A stretch of DNA of 64,000 nt from contig JAJZMI010000050.1 in NCBI GenBank assembly GCA_021798335.1, positions 1,273-65,272 on the forward strand. The letters are read 5' to 3'. A program made the position numbers and the translations under genes. The notes under the pieces are model-generated. The model had not been told where the DNA came from. It saw nothing but the letters and a program-made list of their open reading frames with translations, and did not search any database. The stretch comes from Pseudomonadota bacterium. GTDB taxonomy: Bacteria; Pseudomonadota; Gammaproteobacteria; Steroidobacterales; Steroidobacteraceae. How positions within the stretch are numbered: position 1 is the first letter of the stretch; each line of letters starts with the position of its first letter. Positions 24,743 through 41,071 of the stretch are shown piece by piece.

Positions 24743-24901
24743 TCAGGCCACCGCGGGGAGCTCTTCGGTCCGCACGCCGAAGTAGAGCTCATCCGGCGTT
24801 TGGTAGTAGTCGAGAGACTGATGCAGCCGCCTGCGATTGTAGGTATCGAAGTACGCCGCGAGCTGCCGCTGCGCTTCGCGGCCGTCATGATACGCATGCA
24901 G
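24743..24901 (-). pseudogene. IS3-family OrfB (integrase core) C-terminal remnant
   Basis: The minus strand reads LHAYHDGREAQRQLAAYFDTYNRRRLHQSLDYYQTPDELYFGVRTEELPAVA*. This is the typical IS3 transposase tail, and nothing upstream is in frame. Confidence 0.6.
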
Positions 24902-25068
24902 TTAGTCGAGTAGCGCGGGGCATTGCAGCCCCGCGCCCTCCCAGAAACGGACGTGAACCTCGCGATTCATCCGGCTCCTATCGTGTAGCCGAACCCGCCA
25001 GGACCCAATGCGCGAACAGGCGAGGTTGATTCGCGCGAACGCGAGCAAGCCAGGCCCATGCACCCAGG

Positions 25069-25434
25069 TCACTCCTTCACCGCCGTCTTGTCCATCCCAT
25101 CGAGTGTGCGACTGACGGTCGCCACATCGGGCAGGCGCTTCAGCCCCAGCGTGCGCTTCACCATCGGGTCGTCCTGTTAGTAGCGCAGGTCCGAGAGCCA
25201 CCGGTAGCCGATCAGAAGATGCACGATCAGCAGCATCACGATCGAGGCGTGCCCGAAGATGGGGCTGACCGTCAGGTGATCGAAGCACCCGCGCAGCCGG
25301 CTCTTCAGCCCCAGGCGCTCGAACAAGGGTTGGAACACCACGAGACCTGCGAACGAGGTCATCTGCTGGTCCTCGAAACGGATCTCGGGCAGCGCGCGGG
25401 CTTTCCAATGCACGGCAGACTTGCTAACCTTCAT
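25069..25434 (-). pseudogene. IS1380-family transposase N-terminal remnant with an in-frame stop
   Basis: MKVSKSAVHWKARALPEIRFEDQQMTSFAGLVVFQPLFERLGLKSRLRGCF...LLIVHLLIGYRWLSDLRY-TAA-QDDPMVKRTLGLKRLPDVATVSRTLDGMDKTAVKE. The remnant is truncated after about 120 codons. Confidence 0.65.
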
Positions 25435-26004
25435 ACAGACGGTCGCCTCTCTTGTCTTGATCCTACGTGTAGTAACGCAGATCATAACAGAGTTGAGGCC
25501 GTCTTTTCGTTTCAAACAAACAGTTTTCGCGATCTCCAACGCTCACCCAAGGTGAGAGTTGCGGAACCGTTCAACCGGGCGTCTCAGGCTGGAGTTACAG
25601 GTGCCGATGCGTCGGCGAGCGACGTTTTATGCACCTGGCGGGTCTATACAGACAGCCGAACGCTACACCCCTGCTTCCGCTCGCGTTTTGACTACTTTGA
25701 TTCTAACTCTTGCGCAGGCCATCGAGTAAACGCTAGCACGGACGGGTGCTATCGACCCGCTTCTCTTGGCCCCTCCGGCGGGCTCTACCCGTCAAGCATC
25801 CGAACAAAGCCCCCTATCCAATAACCAGCGTTCCAAAACAAGTGCCGCGGCAATTGATCGAGGCTTGCTGATGAGACGCCTCGCTTTAAACCTGGCGACA
25901 TCCGTTTCGGCATGCCTATATGAGGCAATCTTCGTATCGCTGCTCATACCGCAGCAGGTAGCCGCTCGTCGCTCTTTTCTTGCTTCTGGCTGGAGCCATT
26001 GCAC

Positions 26005-27336
26005 TCAAGACTTCCCTTGCCTTTTCCCAACGCCTGTCTTTGCTCTTCTTGTTTTTGTCGCGGCTGCACGCCGACGCGTCAGCTCAATAACAACTGGACG
26101 GATATTCTGAATCTCCCTCACCATCCATTCCGCCACCTTATCGATGTTTCCATCTCCCAACAGCTCACTAACGCCGCGCACCGTAAATAATCCACTATCC
26201 ACGTCATGTTTCCATATTTTCCATGAATTGGGCAGATCCCTCTCAAGTTGTGATAAGTCCTTCGTGTTTTTTTGGACATCTACATTATCCCCTCCGTCGT
26301 ACACCGCGATATACCACAATACCTCGCCCGGTATTGAATGGCCGTGCTTACGCAAGTCAATGGCCCACGGCGACTCTGGCCAACATAGCCCCCATTCGAC
26401 GCACCAGTCCCTAAGATGACCCGAGCTTTTGAAGAAGCAGTAATCACATATCGATCCGGGGAGAGAAAAGCGCTCTTCAGTTTTGTCTACTATTGTCCTT
26501 TTCTCGGTAAGTTTCTTCAGTGCAGGCTTCAACCTACCACGAATTGCGCTAAAGGATGCCGCGATCCTCTCGGCATGTTCGCCGATGACGAATGGCTTGG
26601 CAGCATCCAGATTTTCAATTGTTATCGTTTCGGAGTTCATATTGTCTTCCTCGAGGAATTTTTCAAGTTGATTCGCGAGAAAGTATACGGATTGTGAATT
26701 TGACTTCGAATTCTTCTGACCGAGCTTCTTGAGCCACAAGAAAACCCGGCTCCATCGGCAGACGCTGGTGAACTCAACATGATATTTCTCTTCTTCATTA
26801 GAAATGAAGTCATCTGGGGGTTCAGTGAAATGCGTAAGAAGCACGAGCGCGCCGCGCCATTCTGGCGTTTTGCATTTCTCACTCAGCCACTGTCCATAAC
26901 GCACCAGCTGGTGGCGGTCTTTTATACGAAAACCTTTATCTTCTTCGGACGATGAACTGCGGCTGTGGGATTCACTGTAGCCCGCACGAATTTTCGCTTC
27001 GATGATTAACAGTGGGCCTTTTTCGTCATTGAGCACAATGTCGCATCGACCGGCCCCCTCGAGATTCTGTTGAGCCGACCATGTCAGTCGTGTTTCTGGC
27101 TGCCTTTCACACAGTCTTTTCCACGCGGCAGCCGAACTTTCGTCTAAGAATAGTTCCTCAATCGCATCCTTCATTTCTCTTGGCGTCAGCCTGTTCAGCA
27201 GGTCGGTTAATGCGCTAGTCAGGAAGTCCTCGAGCGGCTCGCGACCACGCTTTTCGCCCTTGGCCGCTGATCTGTCGTTGAAACGCGGACGATAAGGGAA
27301 GAGCGCGGAATAGAGCGACTGTTTTTCTTCTGACAT
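26005..27336 (-). CDS. PD-(D/E)xK nuclease-fold protein with an uncharacterised C-terminal half
   Basis: 443 aa. GRCDIVLNDEKGPLLIIEAKIRAG gives a D...ExK core followed by HQLVRY. GC is clearly lower than in neighbouring genes (hand-counted lines 37-52%). It lies 26 nt downstream of the preceding gene on the same strand. Confidence 0.6.
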   Translation of the reverse strand: MSEEKQSLYSALFPYRPRFNDRSAAKGEKRGREPLEDFLTSALTDLLNRLTPREMKDAIEELFLDESSAAAWKRLCERQPETRLTWSAQQNLEGAGRCDIVLNDEKGPLLIIEAKIRAGYSESHSRSSSSEEDKGFRIKDRHQLVRYGQWLSEKCKTPEWRGALVLLTHFTEPPDDFISNEEEKYHVEFTSVCRWSRVFLWLKKLGQKNSKSNSQSVYFLANQLEKFLEEDNMNSETITIENLDAAKPFVIGEHAERIAASFSAIRGRLKPALKKLTEKRTIVDKTEERFSLPGSICDYCFFKSSGHLRDWCVEWGLCWPESPWAIDLRKHGHSIPGEVLWYIAVYDGGDNVDVQKNTKDLSQLERDLPNSWKIWKHDVDSGLFTVRGVSELLGDGNIDKVAEWMVREIQNIRPVVIELTRRRAAATKTRRAKTGVGKRQGKS

Positions 27337-27362: not shown

Positions 27363-28625
27363 TCAGGCTCCAATGAGCCTCCGGTGATCGGACGGTACCC
27401 TATCGCCAAGCAAATTCTTGTGCTTGACCCATTGAAATCCGCAGCTCTTGGAAAGGACGGCGACATCAACGGGACCCTGCACGGACTCCTTCATGTTGAT
27501 CGTGTGCCGGGCGAGGAAGATTTGCAGACTCACGAGTGTTTCCGCGAGCGCTGCCAAGGCCCCGCGGGGGAGCGCGGACACCGCGCGCATGAACGGATCG
27601 CTGCAAAGCATTTCGACTTTGTCGCGCAGCTTTTTGGCGAAATCTCGCGTCAGATCATCTGCGCCCGTGTGATCTTTGCTGCCTGACACGTACTCGCGGA
27701 GCATGTCCGGGACGGCCTGTTCCAGGTCAGGGTGAATGCCCCGGATCAGGGTGTCGATCGCATCCGTCTGGGCAAACGGTATGATCATGGCATCATCTTC
27801 CGGCGTGATGGTGCATTCCTTGAGTTTGTAGGTTCTGAACCGACCGCCGAGCAGGGGTGCGATCTGACATTGTACCAGAGAGGGGAATGGCACGGTTTCG
27901 CCTACGCCGCCAATGACCACGTTCGCTGTCCCGGGCCCGCCCCCGGCAGACGTGAGAAATAGACAAGCCGTCTTGCGTAATGCGGCGCGAACTTCTTCGT
28001 CGAGAAGATCGGCATCCGGGAAGACGTCCGCTTCGACCTGGTCTAATAGTCGGGCGTTGCCGCGTATGAGATCCTCGGCCCAGGCGGTATCGGCGCCCTC
28101 CCACGGGTCATGCTGTTCCCAGAGTGCCTGATCTTCGCGGATGAGACGAAGCAGAGTCTCGCGTGGATTACGGTCGACGAGTGGCGTCGGGGATAGTGGC
28201 CTGGACTTCGACGCCATGTCGTTGCTCGGTTGATCCGCAGCTTCCATCGCCTCGGCCAATGGCTTGGCGTACAGCGACTTCCACAGGCCCGTGATCTGGG
28301 ACTTCAGGGCATCCGCCTGGCGCTCCGGTGAAATAGCGAGAAAGGGTGTGCGCCGGAGATACCCCAGGAAGTCATCTACGCATTGCTGAACCGTGTCGAA
28401 TCTGCGGCCATCGAGCTTTCGGGAATAGTCGGCGATGATGACCTCCCAGGGCACGCCCTCATAGGTGGCCTCACCGAAGGTCATGATCCCCATCGGGGCT
28501 CCATTGCCGAGCTGAAAGAGCTTCTCCGCACTGTTGTAAACCTTGGCGCCATCGTCCAAGGACACCGCGCTGTCGGTCGCAAGGGCGATTCCCCAAAGAT
28601 TCATGACCGCGATTTCACAAGTCAT
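27363..28625 (-). CDS. Hypothetical 420-aa protein with an HslV/proteasome-beta-like (Ntn-hydrolase) signature and a large insertion
   Basis: The N-terminus M-TCEIAVMNLWGIALATDSAVSLDDGAKVYNSAEKLF places Thr1, Asp17 and Lys34 after Met removal. HslV and 20S beta subunits have T1/D17/K33. The C-terminal part has beta-subunit-like strands (ANVVIGGVGE..., GPVDVAVLSKSCGFQWV). About 150 acidic, helical residues are inserted between them. The start overlaps the upstream gene stop (ATGA, 28622-28625). Confidence 0.5.
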   Translation of the reverse strand: MTCEIAVMNLWGIALATDSAVSLDDGAKVYNSAEKLFQLGNGAPMGIMTFGEATYEGVPWEVIIADYSRKLDGRRFDTVQQCVDDFLGYLRRTPFLAISPERQADALKSQITGLWKSLYAKPLAEAMEAADQPSNDMASKSRPLSPTPLVDRNPRETLLRLIREDQALWEQHDPWEGADTAWAEDLIRGNARLLDQVEADVFPDADLLDEEVRAALRKTACLFLTSAGGGPGTANVVIGGVGETVPFPSLVQCQIAPLLGGRFRTYKLKECTITPEDDAMIIPFAQTDAIDTLIRGIHPDLEQAVPDMLREYVSGSKDHTGADDLTRDFAKKLRDKVEMLCSDPFMRAVSALPRGALAALAETLVSLQIFLARHTINMKESVQGPVDVAVLSKSCGFQWVKHKNLLGDRVPSDHRRLIGA

Positions 28626-30115
28626 GGCCGCTTTCCTCCCGATGTCGCTGTTCTGTGATCGGCCGATGACATGGAGAAATGTTCGGCGACCTTGACCATC
28701 GCCAGCGTGTCTCGTTCGCAGTAGGTAAGCAGCGAATGTCGAATGGAGGCGCGTTCCGCATCAGAGAGATTCTCGAACACCAGCCGCGAAAACGCCTGTT
28801 GAGCCATGGAACCGTCCGCGACGTCCAGGTCCGCATAATCGAGCTCCGGCGCAATGGTGGGCAGCACCGCCTTGATGGACCAGGAGCCCAGCATGTCGGG
28901 GTGATAGTAGTGCTCGCGCGCGAGCGGCAGCAGGTCCACCAGCCGATCGATGATCCGGCGGATACGCCCCGCATGGCTGGGGAGTGCTTCTGCCAGCTCG
29001 CTCAGGCGGGTCTGCTCGAAGGATTTGTTCCACACGAGAATGGGGCCCTGAGTGCCGAGGGTGGCCAGCAGCGCATTCGTAAAGGGAGGACGGGGATCGG
29101 CCGCGTCCTCGGCGAGGAATCCCTCGTGCCGCAGGCGACCCTCCGATTCCTGGACATGGCAGGACCATTGGAAGGGAATCTGCTGGTATGGCCGGGTGCC
29201 CGCCCAGATCGGGACGGAGGGGGCCCAGGTCTCGAAGTCCAGGAAATATCGGGGGTACGCCAGAGTACGGATGGTTCTGGCGAGTGCGGGGTCCAGGTAG
29301 GGCTTGCCGTTCACAGTCGCTTGCCAGACCCTGCGGTGCAGAGTGCTGGTCAGCCGCTCGGCGGGGACTTCGCGCAGATCGGTATACCCTTCCGCCTTGA
29401 GCTTCGCCGCAAGCTTGCCACCGCGAGGCAGGATGTCCACCGGATAGCCTTCGCGCTCGGGGATGCAGTGTGCCTGGAAGGGACACGGGAACGGGTCATG
29501 GCACTGACGCCCGGGCGCCACATCGGGCTCTTTGCGCCGCGCGAGGGTCCGCCGTGCGGCTGCGACCCAGCCCGGCACTTCGGGCATGCGCTCGGTCAGC
29601 TCCGTCACCACGTCCTGCTCGATCAGAAGCCCTTGATAGTGACCGTCTCCGGTGTAGATGAAGTCGCGATCGATGTAGGCAATCGCCTGTTCGCGTAGCG
29701 GAAGTCCGGCCCCCTGCAGCACCCAGCTTTGGACCGCGGCGTCCTCGAGGTGATACGCCTTGATCGAAGTGGACGACTTGACCTCTATCATGCGCCAGCC
29801 GCGCGCCACGGGGCGCAGGAGGTCGGTGCGCACCAGCACGCCGTCATGCTCGAAGGTGGCCTCGAACAGCGGGCGACGGGGCTTGACCGTCAGCGCCTGT
29901 GCGGTCTGACGCAGCGCCGAGCGTAGATCCTCGGCATCGATCAACACCCCATCGGCGTGCAGGTGCCGTGCGAGCAGACCGACCGTTGTGCCCGCCTCTG
30001 TGAGCGGTTGGCCCGTGGATTCATCAGCCAGCGCGGGGTTGTACACCTGCAGCCAGAGTCGTCTCGGACACTGGCGGTGGATCAGGATGCGGGACTTGGA
30101 TAGACCGTGGGTCAT
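28622..30115 (-). CDS. DUF2779-type protein: Cas4-like PD-(D/E)xK nuclease with a 4-Cys cluster plus a DEDD-like exonuclease domain
   Basis: ATG at 30115 (MTHGLSKSRILIHRQCPRRLWL). It has a nuclease core (RTDLL...RMIEVKSST), cysteines QC...CHDPFPCPFQAHC, then YFLDFETW...IPFQWSCH...YCERDTLAMV. This is the pattern I recall for the DUF2779 family. The track start at 30325 is an unsupported extension. Confidence 0.75.
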   Translation of the reverse strand: MTHGLSKSRILIHRQCPRRLWLQVYNPALADESTGQPLTEAGTTVGLLARHLHADGVLIDAEDLRSALRQTAQALTVKPRRPLFEATFEHDGVLVRTDLLRPVARGWRMIEVKSSTSIKAYHLEDAAVQSWVLQGAGLPLREQAIAYIDRDFIYTGDGHYQGLLIEQDVVTELTERMPEVPGWVAAARRTLARRKEPDVAPGRQCHDPFPCPFQAHCIPEREGYPVDILPRGGKLAAKLKAEGYTDLREVPAERLTSTLHRRVWQATVNGKPYLDPALARTIRTLAYPRYFLDFETWAPSVPIWAGTRPYQQIPFQWSCHVQESEGRLRHEGFLAEDAADPRPPFTNALLATLGTQGPILVWNKSFEQTRLSELAEALPSHAGRIRRIIDRLVDLLPLAREHYYHPDMLGSWSIKAVLPTIAPELDYADLDVADGSMAQQAFSRLVFENLSDAERASIRHSLLTYCERDTLAMVKVAEHFSMSSADHRTATSGGKRP

Positions 30116-30204
30116 GGGCCTCTCCCGGGACCGTGGGCGCGCGGCCAGATCGGTATAGGGGAACAATGGACGGCTGTTTGCTTCGGGGTGGACAGGAGGT
30201 GCAT

Positions 30205-31242
30205 TTAGGCTCTCCGGGCTCGTCGGTAGCGCGCGGCAGCTCGGGTCAGCGTGGCTTTCAACCGCTTCCGCAGCGTCCCGGGGGCAACCACCTCCGCGCC
30301 ATCCCCGAACGCACGCAGCCACCATTCCAGTTGCTGCGTATCCTGGACGGTGGCGGTGACGAGAACCTCTTCGTCGTTGAGATCCTTGATGACCTGGTCG
30401 CCGCTCAGAGGGGTTTCCTCGAGATGCGTCCTGACGCCTCGATGAAAAATCACCTTGAGCACTATGGTCCTGCCAGTGGCTTCTCCACTTGGATACTGGA
30501 ATGCACCGCCGCGAATGTATTCATCGAGATCGAATCCCTCGGGGCGCGTTGCCACCTTCTCCAGCAGCTTCGCGTGCCGCATGCGCTGCAGCGGCACATG
30601 GCGCGGATCCCCGTAGTTCCAGTACGTGCACACGAGGTAAAGCAGGTTTCCGCGCGCCACCAGGCCCAAGGGGTTGAACTCCTGCTCCTTCCATTCCTTC
30701 CCTCCGGCGCTACGGCTCAGGTAGTGGGCGGTGAATCGTTTGCCCATGAGCAATGCGTCGTACACCACCCGCGTAGCGGCCACGTCGATCTTCGGGGCCA
30801 ACAGGGGCATCTCGCGCGGTACGACGCGCACGCAGTCGATCCAGCGGCCGAGGCCCGCGGCGTCTGCGCTCTTCAACGTCTCCTCGGCCCGTTGGAAATA
30901 CCGCCTCAGCTCATCGCTCAGGGTCGGCGGCAGGAACTGCGGGGTGAATCGCTGTAGGAGGTTCAGCATCAACGCGGTCCTCTGATCCATCGCGGGCAGA
31001 TCGAGGATCTCCGCGCCCCGCTCCCAGGACCAGCCCCGGGCAATTCCGCGCCTCTCCCCATCCGAATGAATGGGAAAACCCCCACGGCCGGACAAGGTCT
31101 CGAGATCCCGCTGGATCTGCCGGCGGCTGATTCGGTAGCCCTTCGCATTGAGCGTACGGTGCAGGCTCTTCACATCGCTCTTGGCTGGGTGTCGGGGAAT
31201 TGCCCGCAGGAGCTGCAGGTGACGAAGGATCGCATCAGCCAT
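30205..31242 (-). CDS. WYL-domain transcriptional regulator (HTH-WYL-WCX, BrxR/CapW-like)
   Basis: ATG at 31242 (MADAILRHLQLLRAIPRHP... is a winged HTH). The WYL-type core reads FNPLGLVARGNLLYLVCTYWNYGDPRHVPLQRMRHAKL. A C-terminal extension follows (VTATVQDTQQLEWWLRAFGDGAEVVAP). Confidence 0.8.
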   Translation of the reverse strand: MADAILRHLQLLRAIPRHPAKSDVKSLHRTLNAKGYRISRRQIQRDLETLSGRGGFPIHSDGERRGIARGWSWERGAEILDLPAMDQRTALMLNLLQRFTPQFLPPTLSDELRRYFQRAEETLKSADAAGLGRWIDCVRVVPREMPLLAPKIDVAATRVVYDALLMGKRFTAHYLSRSAGGKEWKEQEFNPLGLVARGNLLYLVCTYWNYGDPRHVPLQRMRHAKLLEKVATRPEGFDLDEYIRGGAFQYPSGEATGRTIVLKVIFHRGVRTHLEETPLSGDQVIKDLNDEEVLVTATVQDTQQLEWWLRAFGDGAEVVAPGTLRKRLKATLTRAAARYRRARRA

Positions 31243-31296
31243 GGGCCCCTCGATGGATCGGATTTTTTCTTCATTGTAGCAGCGTACCTCGGGGGT

Positions 31297-31313
31297 GCGA
31301 CACGAGATGTCGC
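31297..31313. promoter_or_regulatory. Inverted repeat GCGACA-N5-TGTCGC in the divergent intergenic region; candidate WYL-regulator operator
   Basis: A perfect 6-N5-6 inverted repeat seen at 31297-31313, between the WYL gene (start 31242) and the divergent gene (start 31432). The functional assignment is inference only. Confidence 0.25.
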
Positions 31314-31431
31314 GCCCGAACGGTACCGTGTCCTTATGACGCAAGAGAACGCGGGCGCTCACCGAGAAGGGCGCTTCGAGGTGGCGCGAAACACTTCGAT
31401 CCCTTCAAGAACACTTGCTTCGGAGGTCGGT

Positions 31432-31764
31432 ATGAAACGAATTATCCCGTGGATGATTCGTCAGGGAGACGTCTTGATGATTGCGGTTGATGCGATTCCG
31501 AATGACGCGGTCGAACAGCCGCGCGATGAATCTGATCGCGTCGTGCTCGCGTACGGCGAAGCCACCGGTCACGGCCATGCGCTTCACGAGCCTGGGGTGG
31601 CGATGCTGCGTGCCGCGAACCAGGAGGTGTTCTTGCGAGTCCTGGAACCGTCAACTCTCGTGCACGAGGAACATGACCGCATTGCCATTCCGCCGGGGCT
31701 CTACCGGGTGGTGCGACAGAGGGAATGGTCCGACGCGGATGAACCGACCCGGGTGGCCGACTGA
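31432..31764 (+). CDS. Hypothetical 110-aa protein
   Basis: ATG at 31432 with GGAGGT 4 nt upstream. It reads MKRIIPWMIRQGDVLMIAVDAIP...VLAYGEATGHGHAL...LVHEEHDRIAIPPGLYRVVRQREW. I recall the pattern (QGDV...GE.TGH.H...HEEH...G.Y.V..QRE) from small phage or prophage proteins of unknown function. Confidence 0.6.
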   Translation: MKRIIPWMIRQGDVLMIAVDAIPNDAVEQPRDESDRVVLAYGEATGHGHALHEPGVAMLRAANQEVFLRVLEPSTLVHEEHDRIAIPPGLYRVVRQREWSDADEPTRVAD

Positions 31765-31765
31765 A

Positions 31766-33136
31766 ATGCGTGAGATCAATGAGTTGACGCCGGACCAGGA
31801 GGTCCAGCTAAAACGGGAAGCCGATCACTGGTTGGCCAACGGCAGGTCCGTCGAACCGTTGGATCGCAAAAGGGCCGCCGACGCGATTTGCGCGCTGTAC
31901 GCGGCCGTAAGGCGTCCCACACCGGCTGTGCTGTTCTTCTCTTCTCCCGCCAGGTGCATCTTGGCGCTGCGCGCGATGATCAAGCTCGGGACCGAGCGAC
32001 GTTTGCTGTGTGACTCGAGTCTGGAATTGCAATTGCAAGAGCAGCTGAGAGCACAACCGATTCCGAAAGGATGGTTGCAGCGCCAGAGGCAGGCCGCCGC
32101 GTCGATCGGGCTGCGGATCGAGTCGCAGCGGCGGTTAGGAACCTGGGCGCAGATCTGGGATGAATCCAGCACTCACTTCGGGTCACGAATCGATTCCCGG
32201 ATTGGTCCCTCGCTTTGGGTGCAGCTTGACTGCGCGCTGCGCTCGATGCTGTGGGAGCAGTTACGGTCCAGACTCTGGCGGTCAGTGCACAGAAAGCTCA
32301 ACGAGCAATTCCGGGAACCCGTAAGACAAGTACTTGAAACAGACTCCATGTCGCGGTCCATCCGATATGGGGAGGACCCACGCGACCTGAGACAAAGACT
32401 GCTCGACGTCAGGTATCAGGAATCTCACCTGGATCAGATTAAACTCGAGATCGGCATGCCCGGAGTTGAGGGTGTGCCGCGCGGCCTGAAGGCGGATATC
32501 TGGGAGCACTGCATGGGCGCCTGGTGGTGCGCTTCCGCGGTGTTCTATGACTTTTGCGCTCGCATCGGTATTTCGTACGCCCCCGAGCAAACGCGGATTC
32601 TTCGACTGTGGCTTGACCAGTGCCGCTATAGTCACTGGTGGTTCGAGTGCGATGGCATTGTGTTCGTGTCCCATCGCCCAACGGTACTGAAACTGGATTC
32701 TGGGGGCAGGTTGCACAACGAGCGCGGCGCCGCCCTCGAGTATGGGGACGGATTCCGGCTGTGTGCGATTCATGGCGTACAGGTCGAAGAGGATGATGTT
32801 CTGCATCCAGAGCGTATTACGGTCCGCCGAGTCGAGCAGGAGCGCAATGTCGAGTTGCGACGCGCCCTGACGTCGTTCTACGGACAGGCGCGGTACCTGA
32901 AAGACTCCGGAGCCACCCTCGTGCACCAAGATGAACGAGGGAAACTCTGGCGAAAGAAGCGGGAGGGAGATACCGATCTCGTCATGGTAGAGGTGACAAA
33001 TTCGACCCCGGAACCCAACGGGAACGCCCGGCCATACCTGCTGCGGGTCCCGCCCGACATGAAGACGGCCGCGGAGGCGGTCGCATGGACATTCAGCATG
33101 CGGTCGGACCAATACAACCCGGATATCGAGACGTAA
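31766..33136 (+). CDS. Hypothetical 456-aa Trp/Cys-rich protein (resembles the family I recall as DUF6745; unverified)
   Basis: ATG at 31766, one nucleotide after the TGA of the upstream gene. Conserved-looking blocks are GAWWCASAVFYDF, WWFECDGIVFVSHRP, LHNERGAALEYGDGF, VEQERNVELRRAL, VTNSTPEPNGNARPYLLRVPPDMKTAAEAVAWTF. The track start at 31481 overlaps the upstream gene. Confidence 0.6.
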   Translation: MREINELTPDQEVQLKREADHWLANGRSVEPLDRKRAADAICALYAAVRRPTPAVLFFSSPARCILALRAMIKLGTERRLLCDSSLELQLQEQLRAQPIPKGWLQRQRQAAASIGLRIESQRRLGTWAQIWDESSTHFGSRIDSRIGPSLWVQLDCALRSMLWEQLRSRLWRSVHRKLNEQFREPVRQVLETDSMSRSIRYGEDPRDLRQRLLDVRYQESHLDQIKLEIGMPGVEGVPRGLKADIWEHCMGAWWCASAVFYDFCARIGISYAPEQTRILRLWLDQCRYSHWWFECDGIVFVSHRPTVLKLDSGGRLHNERGAALEYGDGFRLCAIHGVQVEEDDVLHPERITVRRVEQERNVELRRALTSFYGQARYLKDSGATLVHQDERGKLWRKKREGDTDLVMVEVTNSTPEPNGNARPYLLRVPPDMKTAAEAVAWTFSMRSDQYNPDIET

Positions 33137-33533: not shown

Positions 33534-33878
33534 ATGCGCCGTCCGGAATCCAAATTCGCATCGCCTCAGGCACATTCGACTGCCGCTCGCCTCGGCAGCG
33601 CAATCCGCGCTGCTCGTCTAGCCCGCAAGGCTACCCAGCAAGAGCTGGCGGAACGCGCTCGCATGAGCGTTTTCACTTGGCAAAAAATCGAAAAGGGCGA
33701 TACCTCGGTTGCCATGGGTACCTGGCTTTCCGCCCTGGAGCAAACCGGGCTCCTCGGACATCTCGAACAGTTGGGTGAGCCCGAGCATGACAGGCTTGGC
33801 CAAGCGTTGCGCCAACAGCAATTGCGTGTGCGAGGCCGCCGCGGCAATGCCCAGTCCTCGATTGACTACGACTTCTGA
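33534..33878 (+). CDS. hipB: XRE-family HTH antitoxin (HipB-like)
   Basis: 114 aa. LGSAIRAARLARKATQQELAERARMSVFTWQKIEKG is a Cro/C1-type HTH. It lies immediately upstream of hipA. Confidence 0.8.
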   Translation: MRRPESKFASPQAHSTAARLGSAIRAARLARKATQQELAERARMSVFTWQKIEKGDTSVAMGTWLSALEQTGLLGHLEQLGEPEHDRLGQALRQQQLRVRGRRGNAQSSIDYDF

Positions 33879-33887
33879 GGAACGCTC

Positions 33888-35171
33888 ATGTCCTGGGATG
33901 GAATCGTCTTCATCCACCTGCCTGATCAGAGCGAGGCGGTTCCGGCGGGAAGAATCTCGCTGCTGGAGGAGGGGCTCCAGTCCATAGGTAGCACCTTCGG
34001 TTACGGTGCCCGATATCTGAAGCGGCCCAACGCGATACCCGTCGACCCTGTAAGTCTACCGCTGTCGAGCTTATCCGGCGAGGAGCAGCTTTATGAGCCG
34101 CCCGCCGGCCTCGCTCTGTTCGGTGCGATTCGTGATGCCACCCCCGATTTATGGGGTCGGCGTGTCATCGAAGCGAAGTTGAAGGTGCCGCCCAACTCTG
34201 TTCCGGAATCGACTTATCTCCTCAACGCCGGCACCCATCGCTTCGGTGCTCTGGATTTCCGAGAGAGCATCCGCTCCGCGAGCGCCGCGGGCTTGCTGCC
34301 ACCGCTTAACGACCTTCAGTACCTGTTGGAAGCCGCGGATCGCGTGCAACAAGGTCTGCCGATACCGACCCGACTGGAAATGCTCTTTCAGGTAGCCAGC
34401 CTGGGTGGGGCGCGGCCGAAAGCACTTGTGTCACATGATGGCAGGCAATTTCTCGCGAAATTCCCGGCCAAGAACGACCCATTCGACATCCCGGCCGTCG
34501 AGCGCGCCTGCCTGGAACTTGCGCGCGCGTCTGGACTGAATGTGCCGCAGACCGATCTGGTACGACTCGCAGACGGTCGGAATGTAATGCTGATCGAGCG
34601 ATTCGACCGGGCCGTTCTGCCAGATGGCAGCTTCTCCCGGAAGCACTGCGTAAGTGCTCTGACCCTGCTTGGCAAACACGAGCAGGAGTCCCCGGCCTCC
34701 AGTTACTCCGAGATCGCCCAGGTGATTTCCGATCGTGGAGTGTCCGGACACGTGCAAGAGGACCGTGCGGAGCTGTATGCGAGAGTTGCGTTCAATATCC
34801 TCATTTCGAATGACGACGACCACCTGCGAAATCACGCATTCATATGGCACCCGCCGGGCAAGGCTTGGCGACTGAGTCCGCTGTACGACGTGGTTCCCCG
34901 CCCGCAAGTATTCCACGAGCGACGATTGCATCTGTCGGTCGGCCCCCAAGGCAGGAACGCCACGCTCACAAACCTGTTCGAGGCACGCGGAAGTTTCGGC
35001 TTGCTGAAACCCGACGCAATCGCAATCATCGAGAGGGTCTCTGCGGCGGCGCGAGAATGGCGCACACACTTGGAATCGGCGGGTGTGAGCCCTGCGCAAT
35101 GCGACCTCGTTCAAAGTGCATTCCGTAGACCACAAGATATCGGTCTCGACGAGATAACGAAGACGCGGTAG
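33888..35171 (+). CDS. hipA: Type II toxin HipA-family Ser/Thr kinase
   Basis: 427 aa with HipA N-domain motifs (DATPDLWGRRVIE), LGGARPKALV, and the kinase core ILISNDDDHLRNHAFIW. Confidence 0.9.
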   Translation: MSWDGIVFIHLPDQSEAVPAGRISLLEEGLQSIGSTFGYGARYLKRPNAIPVDPVSLPLSSLSGEEQLYEPPAGLALFGAIRDATPDLWGRRVIEAKLKVPPNSVPESTYLLNAGTHRFGALDFRESIRSASAAGLLPPLNDLQYLLEAADRVQQGLPIPTRLEMLFQVASLGGARPKALVSHDGRQFLAKFPAKNDPFDIPAVERACLELARASGLNVPQTDLVRLADGRNVMLIERFDRAVLPDGSFSRKHCVSALTLLGKHEQESPASSYSEIAQVISDRGVSGHVQEDRAELYARVAFNILISNDDDHLRNHAFIWHPPGKAWRLSPLYDVVPRPQVFHERRLHLSVGPQGRNATLTNLFEARGSFGLLKPDAIAIIERVSAAAREWRTHLESAGVSPAQCDLVQSAFRRPQDIGLDEITKTR

Positions 35172-37814: not shown

Positions 37815-38900
37815 CTAGTGTAGTGCTTCATTCTGTTTGGAACTTAAGCGGCTATTTGCACGAATGACCTTTTGCAAGATATCGCGAGCGCTCTTGGTCC
37901 AAATGAATGGCTTGGGATTGGTATTGTGATGCGCGATGTAGTCATCGATGGCGGCGACCAATTCGGGCACGCTCGTGAACACACCGCGGCGCAGCCGTTC
38001 CACCGTGATGTCCCGAAAGAACCGCTCAACCATGTTCAACCACGAGGCCGAGGTCGGCGTGAAGTGCATGTGGATACGCGGTCGTTTCGCAAGCCACCGC
38101 TGCACGGCCGGATGCTTGTGGGTAGCGTAATTGTCGGCGATCAAATGCAATTCCTTGTCCGCCGGCGTTTCACGCTCGATCTGGCGCAGGAACTTCAGCC
38201 ACTCGATGTGGCGATGCCGCTGCTGACATTGGGCAATCACCTGTCCGTCGAGGACGTTGAGCGCCGCGAACAACGTGGTCGTCCCGTTGCGCTTGTAATC
38301 GTGCGTCATCGTCGCCGCGCGTCCCTTCTTCATCGGCAACCCAGGTTGCGTGCGATCCAGCGCCTGTACTTGACTCTTCTCATCACAGCACAAGACCAAC
38401 GCGTGATCCGGCGGGGACATGTACAGGCCGACGATGTCCTCGAGCTTCTCTACAAACTGCGGATCACGCGAGACCTTGAAGCCTCGCACCCGATGCGGCT
38501 TCAGCCCGTGCTGGCGCCACACCCGCAGCACCGTGGTGTCGCTGACGCCCACCTGCGCCGCCATCGAGCGCGTGCTCCATTGCGTGGCGTTGGCAGGCAA
38601 AGTCTGCGTCGTCAGTCGCACGATCTGCGCCGCGTCAACCTTCACCGGTCGCCCGCCGCGCGGCAAATCCTGCTCAATCGCCGCCAAGCCGCCCTCGATA
38701 TAGCGATTGCGCCAGCGTCCGACTTGAACACGACCAACGCCCACCTGGGCGGCAATCGTATGGTTGTCCAACCCGTCCGCCGCACCCAGTACGATCTGCG
38801 CGCGGCGCGCCAATCGAACACTGACCGTCTTGGATCGAGCCAGCTGCAGCAACTTCGCTCGCTCCTCGTTCAACAACACAATCTCCGCCGCTTTGCGCAT
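37815..38900 (-). CDS. IS630-family DDE transposase
   Basis: 361 aa with N-terminal HTH domains and a DDE core ([14 protein letters not shown]...[13 protein letters not shown]...[13 protein letters not shown]). Confidence 0.9.
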
Positions 38901-39238: not shown

Positions 39239-41071
39239 TCACTCCACCGTCACGCTCTTGGCGAGATTGCGCGGCTGATCGACGTCCGTGCCCTTCATGA
39301 TGGCGACGTGATAGGCGAGCAGCTGCAGGGGTATGGTGTACACGATGGGCGATTGGAAATAGCTCACGTGTCTGGGCATCTCGATGACGGTAACACCGTC
39401 GCTCGGCTGCAACCCCGATTCCGGATCGGCGAAGACGATGAGCTCGCCGCCGCGCGCCCGCACCTCCATCAGATTCGACTTCAGCTTTTCCAACAGGTCG
39501 TTGTTGGGTGCCACGGCAACCACGGGCATATCCGCGTCCACGAGCGCGAGCGGACCGTGCTTGAGCTCGCCGGCCGGATAGCTCTCGGCATGAATGTAGG
39601 AGATCTCCTTGAGCTTCAGTGCCCCTTCCATCGCGATGGGATACAGGCCACCGCGACCGAGGAACAAGGTGTGGTGCTTGTCGGCGAAGCGCTCGGCGAG
39701 TTTGTGGATGACGGGATCGAGCGTGAGCGCCTTCTCGACGAGCGCAGGCAGTTCCACCAGCCGCGTGACCAGACCCCGCTCGCGCTCGGCGTCGGCGCCC
39801 TGATGGCGGGCGAGGGCGATGGTCAGCATGGCGAGCGCGGTCAGCTGGGTCGTGAATGCCTTGGTCGAGGCGACGCCGATCTCGGGGCCGGCGCGCGTCA
39901 GCATCACCAGCTCCGACTCGCGCACCAGGGAGCTTTCCGGAGCGTTGCAGATGGCAAGCTGGGATAGATAACCCGATTGCCGGGCAAGGCGCAGCGCCGC
40001 CAGCGTATCGGCCGTCTCGCCGGACTGCGAGATCGTGACGAACAGCGAGTCGGGCGGCACCAGCGGATTGCGGTAGCGGTATTCGCTGGCGATGTCGACT
40101 GCACACGGAAGGCGGCAGATCTGCTCGATGAAATAGCGCACCACGGAAGCGGCATGATAGCTGGTGCCGCACGCGACGATGTGCACGCACCGCACACGCT
40201 TGAAGACCTCGGTGGCGGCCGGGCCGAACGCGGCCTCCAGCAGGCGGCCGTGGGCGACGCGCTCGGCGAGTGTGTCCGCGATGGCGCGCGGCTGCTCGTG
40301 GATTTCCTTGAGCATGAAATGGCGGTATGGACCCTTTTCCGCCGGATCGGCGCTGAGGTCACTTTCCCGAACCGGCCGCTCCGCAGCGCCGCCCTTGCGG
40401 TCGACGATGCGCACGCTGGTGCGCCGGATCTCGGCGACATCCCCCTCCTCGAGAAACATGAAGCGCCGCGTCACGGGCAACAGCGCTGCAACGTCGGAGG
40501 CGACGAAATTCTCCTCGACACCGAGGCCGATGACCACGGGGCACCCCTGGCGCGCCACGACCAGTCGCTGCGGGTCGTGGTCACTGATCACGGCGAGCGC
40601 ATAGGCACCTTGCAGCTCGGCGACGGTGGCTCGCACTGCTTCGAACAGATCCCGCAGGGTGTTCAAATGAAGATGAATGCGGTGCGCCACCACTTCGGTA
40701 TCGGTCTCCGAAGTGAACCGATAGCCGCGCTTCTCCAGATCGGCCCGGAGTGCTTCGTGGTTTTCGATGATGCCGTTGTGCACGACGGCTAATCCGTCCT
40801 GCGAGACGTGAGGATGCGCATTGCGCTCGCTGGGCACGCCATGTGTCGCCCAGCGCGTATGCGCAATCCCGGTGCCGCCGCCGATAGGCGTCGCGGCCAA
40901 GGCTTGCTCGAGCATTTTGACCTTGCCGACGGTACGCATGCGGGCCAACCTGCCCGAATGAATGACCGCCAGACCCGCGGAGTCGTAACCCCGATACTCG
41001 AGCCGCCGCAACCCTTCAATCAGCACCGGGACGATATTGCGCTCGGCGATTGCTCCGACGATTCCGCACAT
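39239..41071 (-). CDS. glmS: Glutamine--fructose-6-phosphate aminotransferase
   Basis: 610 aa. It starts [12 protein letters not shown] (N-terminal Cys nucleophile), has two SIS domains, and ends ...[15 protein letters not shown]. Confidence 0.97.

Follow-up and report, generated by a model that had tools for sequence, protein, structure and literature searches.

The DNA considered here, which we call the window, is a stretch of 64,000 nucleotides (nt) from contig JAJZMI010000050.1 of a gammaproteobacterial genome assembly (GCA_021798335.1, Steroidobacteraceae), and our subject is a minus-strand gene within it that encodes a protein of 420 amino acids (aa), hereafter the hydrolase. The gene order is WYL regulator, DUF2779 protein, hydrolase, and a 443-aa probable nuclease. 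An earlier examination of the letters alone (the sequence-only reading) had described the 420-aa protein as a proteasome-beta/HslV-type N-terminal nucleophile (Ntn) hydrolase that is split by a large insertion, lies between two nucleases, and is translationally coupled to one of them. The open reading frame (ORF) exists as described, on the minus strand, reading from 28625 to 27363 with its ATG at 28625-28623 and the N-terminus MTCEIAVMNLWGIALATDSAVSLDDGAKVYNSAEKLF (MTCEIAVMN...); a Shine-Dalgarno sequence, GGGAGGA, lies 8 nt 5′ of the start; and the peptides quoted from it are all found (ANVVIGGVGETVPFPSLVQ at residues 233-251, FAQTD at 284-288, and GPVDVAVLSKSCGFQWVKHK at 384-403). The hydrolase ATG overlaps the TGA of the DUF2779 ORF (ATGA, 28625-28622), and an identical 4-nt overlap of the same two genes is present in loci L005 and L189.

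Fold and active site of the hydrolase

Scans of the 420-aa protein against Pfam, NCBIfam, and PADLOC returned nothing at E<=1, and a single-sequence search of the PDB returned noise only (CBL-B, E 0.7). An AlphaFold2 model built from an alignment of homologues (predicted local distance difference test 84.8, predicted template modelling score 0.82) and a profile freed of insertions both lead to the proteasome. Specifically, i) the top 50 Foldseek matches of the model in the PDB are exclusively 20S proteasome beta subunits or Anbu (probability ~1, E 2e-4 to 4.5e-3, target-normalised template modelling score 0.32-0.56), and no HslV chain appears among the top matches listed; ii) among viral models (BFVD) first place goes to a phage 'proteasome beta type-2 subunit' (2.4e-6), a phage HslV coming only 16th (E 0.44); iii) profile A2, the family alignment with the insertions cut out, has 6 matches in the PDB, every one a proteasome beta subunit; and iv) the best of these, Thermoplasma acidophilum beta (1pma_B, E = 2.2e-4), aligns in two collinear pieces that place T1/E17/K33 onto T2/D18/K35 and SASGGMIDVAVITRKDGYV onto ETVGGPVDVAVISKGDGFV. 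The full-length profile also matched the N-terminal helical repeats of Cullin-3 (E ~6e-4; residues 82-158, about 28152-28382, within the first insertion), and we judge these matches to be probably spurious, helical or compositional in origin, because they were gone once the insertions had been removed, leaving proteasome beta alone.

The core of the model runs from strands S1-S5 (residues 4-51) through helices H1 (60-71) and H2 (79-92) to insertion 1, and from there through four strands (234-283), H3 (288-295), insertion 2, and H4 (354-374) to two final strands (386-401), in the strand and helix order (S1-S10 plus H1-H4) of the proteasome-type alpha-beta-beta-alpha sandwich. The C-terminal third, singled out beforehand as resembling a beta subunit, carries a GG.(V/I)DVAVI.K.DG strand motif that aligns with 20S beta. 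We are in very little doubt that the fold is of proteasome type and that the protein belongs to this family; structure and profile searches return the proteasome family only, in agreement with an Ntn hydrolase of conserved Thr/Asp/Lys and large helical insertion. Two results had been named in advance as fatal to that description, namely no Ntn match and a triad not conserved among homologues, and neither occurred.

Conservation was scored in 318 unique homologues, counting the ungapped rows of each column. A first homologue alignment had already shown D18 and K35 to be invariant and M1/T2 nearly so; in the full set, residue 2 is Thr in 304/307 and Ser in 3, the protein starts with Met-Thr in 295/318, Asp18 is present in every row, and Lys35 is present in all rows but one (Table 1). 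The Thr1/Asp17/Lys34-type spacing first noticed in this single sequence is therefore a family signature rather than chance. Removal of the initiator Met would expose Thr2 as the N-terminal nucleophile, to judge by the sequence. Residue 3 is Cys (MTCE...) at all nine N-termini examined of the subclade described below (window, L005, L171, L173, L175, L177, L178, L182, and L189) and Ala in the main family (Ala in 256 and Cys in 19 of the 318). RefSeq probably starts the gene at L194:5786-7189 (Escherichia coli Res13, WP_231531568.1) 33 codons too early; the conserved start MTAEIVVIN lies inside that model, and the annotated protein would therefore hide its N-terminal Thr.

Table 1. Features of the hydrolase gene and its neighbours, in window coordinates
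Feature	Position	Strand	Basis or remark
Hydrolase gene	27363..28625	minus	420-aa proteasome-type Ntn (Thr1) hydrolase, PMI-like; ORF, AlphaFold2 model, Foldseek, core profile
ATGA start/stop overlap with upstream DUF2779 gene	28622..28625	minus	Read from sequence
Thr2 codon, predicted nucleophile	28620..28622	minus	Aligned to Thr1 of T. acidophilum beta; no propeptide
Asp18 codon (= Asp/Glu17)	28572..28574	minus	316/316; aligned to Glu17 of 1pma_B
Lys35 codon (= Lys33)	28521..28523	minus	316/317; aligned to Lys33 of 1pma_B
Insertion 1, residues ~95-230	27936..28343	minus	Five helices after core H2, 'pore loop' site; DSSP of model
Insertion 2, residues ~299-352	27570..27731	minus	Two helices between H3 and H4; DSSP H299-314, H322-350
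DUF2779 protein	28622..30115	minus	Pfam PF11074 1.9e-44; PADLOC Cas4 1.7e-6
HTH-WYL-WCX regulator, first gene of cluster	30205..31242	minus	Pfam WYL 1.4e-9, WCX 9e-15; PADLOC WYL 1e-27
Probable PD-(D/E)XK nuclease, 443 aa, extra C-terminal domain	26005..27336	minus	Invariant E36, D99, E113, K115
DUF6745 protein, divergent neighbour	31481..33136	plus	Pfam PF20530 1.5e-55; synteny kept in L005, L189, L190

The acidic helical insertion of the sequence-only reading is real, helical, and mildly acidic (24 Asp/Glu versus 15 Lys/Arg over residues 95-230, net charge -9), but it spans about 95-230 rather than 75-225, because residues 60-92 form core helices H1 and H2, and a second insertion (~299-352) had been missed. 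Insertion 1 is poorly conserved in alignment A1, and its five helices comprise residues 100-131, 154-169, 180-189, 191-201, and 210-225; the S3-S4 region of the model is short and has no insertion. The pore lining and the contacts between rings in 20S and HslV are formed at the two insertion sites, and insertions at these two places (pore loop and H3/H4) have been argued to hinder canonical ring or double-ring assembly (Fuchs, Alva & Lupas, Bioinformatics 2021; PMC8665760). On this ground we would look for a peptidase (or transpeptidase) that is gated by a lid and specific for its substrate, after the fashion of connectase, and not for a barrel fed by an unfoldase; the insertions would gate the active site and disfavour a closed barrel.

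Comparison with the better known homologues sharpens this picture. The hydrolase shares with 20S beta (1pma_B) the fold, Thr1, Glu/Asp17, Lys33, and the C-terminal strand motif, but has about 190 extra residues in its two helical insertions and lacks a propeptide, an alpha subunit, and an unfoldase, and its assembly into rings is doubtful. Anbu (5nyg, 5nyw, and 5lox, among the top structural matches) is likewise a stand-alone bacterial homologue without propeptide or dedicated AAA+ partner, but is about 235 aa long without these insertions, forms helical or dodecameric assemblies, and belongs to a conserved operon with ATP-grasp and transglutaminase-like genes rather than to mobile cassettes. 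HslV (ClpQ) also uses an N-terminal Thr nucleophile with Lys33 and spaces its Thr, Asp, and Lys similarly, but is a housekeeping double hexamer of about 175 aa always accompanied by the AAA+ unfoldase HslU, whereas members of the present family are 400-445 aa long and have no conserved AAA+ neighbour in 116 loci. Connectase (archaeal DUF2121) shows that a homologue can be monomeric, carry a lid, and act sequence-specifically on a single partner protein, but its insertion lies between S3 and S4, it has no H1/H2, and it is confined to methanogens, where it is the ligase for MtrA. To our knowledge, no function is known for any proteasome homologue other than 20S, HslV, Anbu, BPH, and connectase.

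The family, its partner gene, and its surroundings

The fold is not new. A published survey (Fuchs et al. 2021, PMC8665760) reported 22 new families of proteasome homologues, among them PHI and PMI-1 to PMI-6 (PMI for 'proteasome homologs with multiple insertions'), with a propeptide absent from all of them, and the novelty claimed in the sequence-only reading falls as far as the fold is concerned, since our protein fits PMI-3/PMI-4. Both groups carry insertions at two sites, a long one following H1/H2 and a second separating H3 from H4 (PMC8665760); the model has both, with five helices at residues ~95-230 and two more between those at 288-295 and 354-374. PMI-4 is the most populous PMI group (501 nr90 sequences; representative HDY66466.1; KEGG OC.661505-661513) and ranges over Proteobacteria, Firmicutes, Actinobacteria, Bacteroidetes, PVC, Cyanobacteria, other bacteria, Euryarchaeota, and phages (PMC8665760). 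The distribution of our family is similarly broad, including Euryarchaeota and phages: a search of 5.8 billion proteins gave 40 homologues, none of them named; GTDB species representatives gave at least 556 matches (in Methylocystis, Paenibacillus, Clostridium, Flavobacteriia, Planctomycetota, Methanosarcinales, ANME, and DPANN, among others); homologues occur on at least 223 IMG/VR contigs; and a library of 1.84 billion proteins holds 6707 clusters at 50% identity. NCBI and UniRef label the members 'hypothetical'. We consider it likely that the hydrolase belongs to PMI-3/PMI-4, PMI-4 being the likelier of the two; it shares with them the beta core, the Thr1/Asp17/Lys33 equivalents, the lack of a propeptide, both insertion sites, a patchy range, and the lack of an AAA+ partner (PMC8665760). 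The authors of the PMI families saw no genomic context or co-occurrence hinting at function (PMC8665760), whereas in our loci a small conserved gene follows the hydrolase and one subclade is linked to WYL regulators; literature searches on proteasome homologues in phage defence and on the family accessions yielded nothing beyond the 2021 survey and no later functional paper. What is new is thus the small partner gene, the mobile and defence-associated positions, and the WYL-linked subclade.

The partner gene came to light in a context sample of 170 loci, of which 110 form a non-redundant subset at 70% identity. Downstream of almost all homologues, at -31 to +25 nt from the hydrolase stop, begins an ORF of 46-80 aa with an ATG start. 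Such an ORF stands 3′ of the hydrolase in 98/110 non-redundant loci (~90%), as against 52/376 (13.8%) for the other long ORFs of the same loci. The small proteins (e.g. L188:5299-5475, L187:5213-5380, and L193:7264-7413) belong together by homology, with links among 78 of the 110 unique sequences, and form a separate fast-evolving family with a basic N-terminus, an (F/Y)(R/H)S..E(F/Y)E..(F/Y)FP motif, and a C-terminal amphipathic helix. The pairing may have been overlooked because the small ORF, although annotated (as 'hypothetical') in two phage records, is missing from the RefSeq annotation of E. coli (ETEC-2265). No further conserved neighbour, and no AAA+ partner, was found in 116 non-redundant loci.

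The family is a horizontally mobile accessory gene, occupying prophage moron or immunity positions, the ends of satellite phages, plasmids, and the cargo of integrative and conjugative elements, beside restriction, BREX, and DISARM genes. The family has matches in 13 GenBank phage records, mostly Streptococcus satellite phages or prophages, and in most of these no more than about 200 bp separate the gene from the end of the record. In a lambdoid Providencia phage the cassette sits between Q/Dam and the holin, as it does, on the opposite strand, in an enterotoxigenic E. coli (ETEC) prophage; in another E. coli prophage the gene is directly 3′ of a cI-like repressor and co-oriented with it, a rexAB-like position; and in one prophage it follows the tail and lysis genes. 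There are rhizobial and enterococcal plasmid copies. Among complete E. coli genomes, 22/5426 carry the gene, and all the contexts examined are of prophage type. A scan of 120 flanking ORFs from 37 non-viral loci gave strong matches to BrxHI, DrmD/DrmMI, PglX, type IIG and type II restriction-modification, HmaA/B, dCTPase, PD-T4-6, GmrSD, and integrases.

The hydrolase of the window departs from the main clade. In a neighbour-joining tree it falls in a monophyletic group of 11 (window, L005, L189, L171, L011, L012, L173, L175, L177, L178, and L182), and the canonical small ORF was found in none of these 11 loci; a hidden Markov model (HMM) of the 78 partner sequences, run against the window and the subclade loci, likewise gave a best E of 3.6. 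The N-terminus of the 443-aa protein (SLYSALFPYRPR...EDFLT) was considered as a fused small partner and rejected, having no HMM support and holding the invariant Glu36 of the PD-(D/E)XK core. A helix-turn-helix (HTH)-WYL-WCX regulator is encoded within 3 genes of the hydrolase in 8/11 members. The order WYL-DUF2779-hydrolase-nuclease is that of the window, L005, and L189; in L171, L177, and L178 the WYL gene is directly 3′ of the hydrolase; and in L175 a DUF2779-WYL pair lies about 2 kb upstream of a hydrolase homologue of 32% identity. WYL regulators of this type sense single-stranded DNA (ssDNA) and control defence systems (PMC9122601, PMC11662680), and others, such as PafBC, DriD, and SiwR, govern DNA-damage responses (PMC10853764, PMC10693628).

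Two subclade loci have surroundings of their own. L178:3066-10593 encodes an SMC-like ATPase (1150 aa), a 121-aa ORF, the hydrolase, and a WYL-WCX protein, with an Mrr_cat nuclease on the opposite strand, and looks like another undescribed defence-type operon. At L173:4186-8279, genes for an AAA (DUF5925) ATPase and an ADP-ribosylglycohydrolase flank the hydrolase, divergent from the WYL regulator, on a fragment of a conjugative element with TrbC and DUF2274.

What the hydrolase may do

The explanation we favour, and think probable if by a modest measure, is that the hydrolase is a catalytically competent, substrate-specific Thr peptidase in a mobile defence-type module, as its sequence and modelled structure suggest. 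A role in defence or exclusion is a more tentative matter, finely balanced with doubt slightly the heavier. In such a scheme the WYL regulator would respond to ssDNA or DNA damage inflicted by a phage or mobile element, and the operon would be derepressed; the Thr peptidase would cleave one specific protein, be it a protein of the invader or a cognate inhibitor, regulator, or effector; the nucleases would attack DNA; and the small partner (or, in the subclade of the window, the WYL protein or an effector) would serve as inhibitor, substrate, or specificity factor of the hydrolase. Operons with a regulator of the BrxR/CapW type resemble that of the window in having an HTH-WYL-WCX gene first, before nuclease-type genes, in an island context, and such regulators co-localise with diverse defence systems (PMC9122601, PMC11662680); the window differs in that its genes (DUF2779, PMI-type hydrolase, and PDC-S26-like nuclease) fit no named PADLOC 2.0 system. 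A bolder version, which we regard as doubtful, is that the Thr hydrolase and small protein together constitute a new class of anti-phage system (exclusion or abortive infection) of prophages, satellites, and islands, the first to be built on a protease of proteasome fold, and that in the subclade of the window the partner would have given way to a connection with an ssDNA-sensing WYL regulator and nuclease effectors, with the regulator or nuclease perhaps the substrate.

We wish to stress that a number of observations weigh against a competent peptidase of defence. Specifically, i) the window copy is without the small partner conserved in the family, and what is deduced from the main clade may not apply to it; ii) the supporting residues of 20S, Ser129, Asp166, and Ser169, are not conserved as such, and the chemistry could therefore differ: the site of Gly128-Ser129-Gly130, before H3, reads FAQ(x)(D/E) in the family (F284/A285/Q286 in >=95%), the FAQTD remarked on in the single sequence being one instance, and 'E-T/S-V-G-G-P' aligns with 'SASGG', putting Val at the position of Ser169, so that the triad is canonical while the second shell typical of 20S beta and HslV (GSG; Asp166/Ser169 before S9) is not; iii) position 51, the equivalent of the Gly47 oxyanion hole, is Gly in 236/318 and mostly Asn, Ser, or Asp in the rest, though the side chain may not matter because the oxyanion contact is made by the backbone; iv) the signature of a defence or competition cassette is there, but as counts of neighbourhoods without a genome-wide background, and no PADLOC-DB 2.0 family matches the hydrolase at E<=1; v) the placement in PMI-4, the likeliest of the PMI groups, goes by architecture and distribution rather than by comparison with the published representative; and vi) the cluster also exists without the hydrolase, as WYL-DUF2779-nuclease with the hydrolase gene cleanly absent in L190 (ENA ERZ27237515 k141_553355), and the family of the 443-aa nuclease is also found alone.

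The rival that survives best, though we hold it unlikely, is a regulatory or addiction protease that would cut the product of an adjacent gene, in the main clade the small protein and in the subclade the WYL protein or the nuclease, after the manner of a toxin-antitoxin system or an anti-repressor switch of the ImmA/ImmR type. Strict pairing with a fast-evolving, motif-bearing small protein would suit such an arrangement, as would the WYL gene in the slot directly 3′ of the hydrolase in three subclade loci and the prophage repressors adjacent in several others (among 108 upstream neighbours, HTH_3 in 5 and Peptidase_S24 in 2; the cI-like repressor of E. coli). The WYL regulators PafBC are encoded in the Pup-proteasome locus of mycobacteria, a further point in its favour. 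The small proteins have no DNA-binding domain, however, and a large enzyme in first place is an atypical order for a classical type II toxin-antitoxin pair; moreover, this account is compatible with a substrate-specific peptidase in a defence module and may be a sub-case of it.

The picture to which the sequence-only reading pointed is of one machine: a self-compartmentalising protease, ring or barrel, in physical association with both flanking nucleases, its coupling to DUF2779 reflecting a stoichiometric complex. The proteasome fold and intact triad accord with it; the ATGA overlap kept in three loci, the recurrence of DUF2779 and WYL about 2 kb from the divergent homologue in L175, and a homologue of the 443-aa nuclease after the hydrolase in L011, there without DUF2779, also speak for an association with these genes. 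The hydrolase does lie between two nucleases in the window, with DUF2779 upstream and the PD-(D/E)XK protein downstream, but only this lineage among the 170 loci has DUF2779 adjacent; the insertions fall at the pore-loop and H3/H4 ring-ring sites (PMC8665760); both the nuclease and the rest of the cluster occur apart from the hydrolase, as noted above; and the GC content falls stepwise along the operon (WYL 63.6%, DUF2779 64.7%, hydrolase 59.6%, and 443-aa nuclease 49.7%, with flanks of 64-70%), indicating a mosaic of separately acquired cassettes. The link between hydrolase and nuclease is probably modular, that of co-regulated neighbours; an obligate complex of the hydrolase with the nucleases is improbable, and a ring machine incorporating them more so.

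Equally improbable is an enzyme that is no protease, whose Thr1 site would ligate or transpeptidate in a sequence-specific manner like connectase or would hydrolyse a non-peptide amide. The helical insertions may serve as a lid over the active site, as in connectase (PMC8665760), the GSG/Ser129 and Ser169 positions are replaced, and there is no conserved unfoldase partner. Connectase is nevertheless defined by an insertion between S3 and S4 (PMC8665760), where the hydrolase has none, and lacks the H1/H2 that the hydrolase has, and the nearest matches in sequence and structure are bona fide proteolytic beta subunits and Anbu. A host stress or DNA-repair operon under WYL control, in which the nucleases would process DNA and the protease would clear DNA-protein crosslinks or damaged proteins, finds some encouragement in the two nucleases of the operon and the damage responses run by PafBC, DriD, and SiwR (PMC10853764, PMC10693628), but has an equally slim chance against the patchy and mobile distribution (in E. 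coli, few genomes and prophage-type contexts in all loci examined), the copies on satellite phages and plasmids, the low and heterogeneous GC content, and an island that lies downstream of glmS and is flanked by a transposase remnant, HipBA, and an insertion sequence (IS).

We return to the substrate-specific peptidase in a mobile defence-type module for what it would mean. The family is very large (bacteria, archaea, and phages) and annotated as 'hypothetical protein' everywhere, and its partner gene, its lysogen-expressed or moron positions in prophages and satellites, its defence-island neighbours, and its WYL subclade make it a testable system. Were it an immunity or exclusion module, a Thr-protease mechanism would be added to bacterial defence, and an insertion-bearing proteasome homologue would have its first physiological role; if it is not, the hydrolase stays an ordinary member of a catalogued family.

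Neighbouring genes and the island

Taken as their longest ORFs, the DUF2779 and WYL genes share 121 nt. Orthologues in L005 and L189 are 497 and 345 aa long, respectively, and we therefore place the probable starts internally, at Met71 (30115) of the 567-aa DUF2779 ORF (28622-30325) and at Met41 (31242) of the WYL ORF (30205-31362). DUF2779 proteins have been read as a Cas4-like PD-(D/E)XK N-terminal half joined to an RNase H-like exonuclease domain (PMC3985635, PMC13621843). The 443-aa protein is a probable PD-(D/E)XK nuclease by its residue signature, along with weak HMM matches (PDDEXK_4, HSDR_N, NucS, and PDC-S26) and Foldseek matches of its model that are weak and to nucleases only (McrC 6e-3, NucS 0.6). 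PADLOC finds only Cas4, WYL, and PDC-S26 among the neighbours, each weak or generic. The order at L190, a sister island, is GmrSD, DUF6745 / WYL-DUF2779-413-aa nuclease, with 51 nt between DUF2779 and the nuclease.

A promoter and terminator scan of 25.5-31.8 kb gave 0 promoters and terminators at chance level, and the window has no tRNA genes. The island covers about 25-39 kb, with a transposase remnant on one side and HipBA, an IS, and glmS on the other. Its edges are a DDE transposase fragment (~24900-25540), an intact DDE_3 IS transposase (37815-38900), and glmS (SIS and GATase domains, 39239-41071); a toxin-antitoxin pair of HipB-like HTH (HTH_31) and HipA (HipA_C 5.5e-48) adjoins the island at 33534-35171 on the plus strand. 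The 3′ end of glmS points toward the island, as at a classic attTn7-type hotspot.

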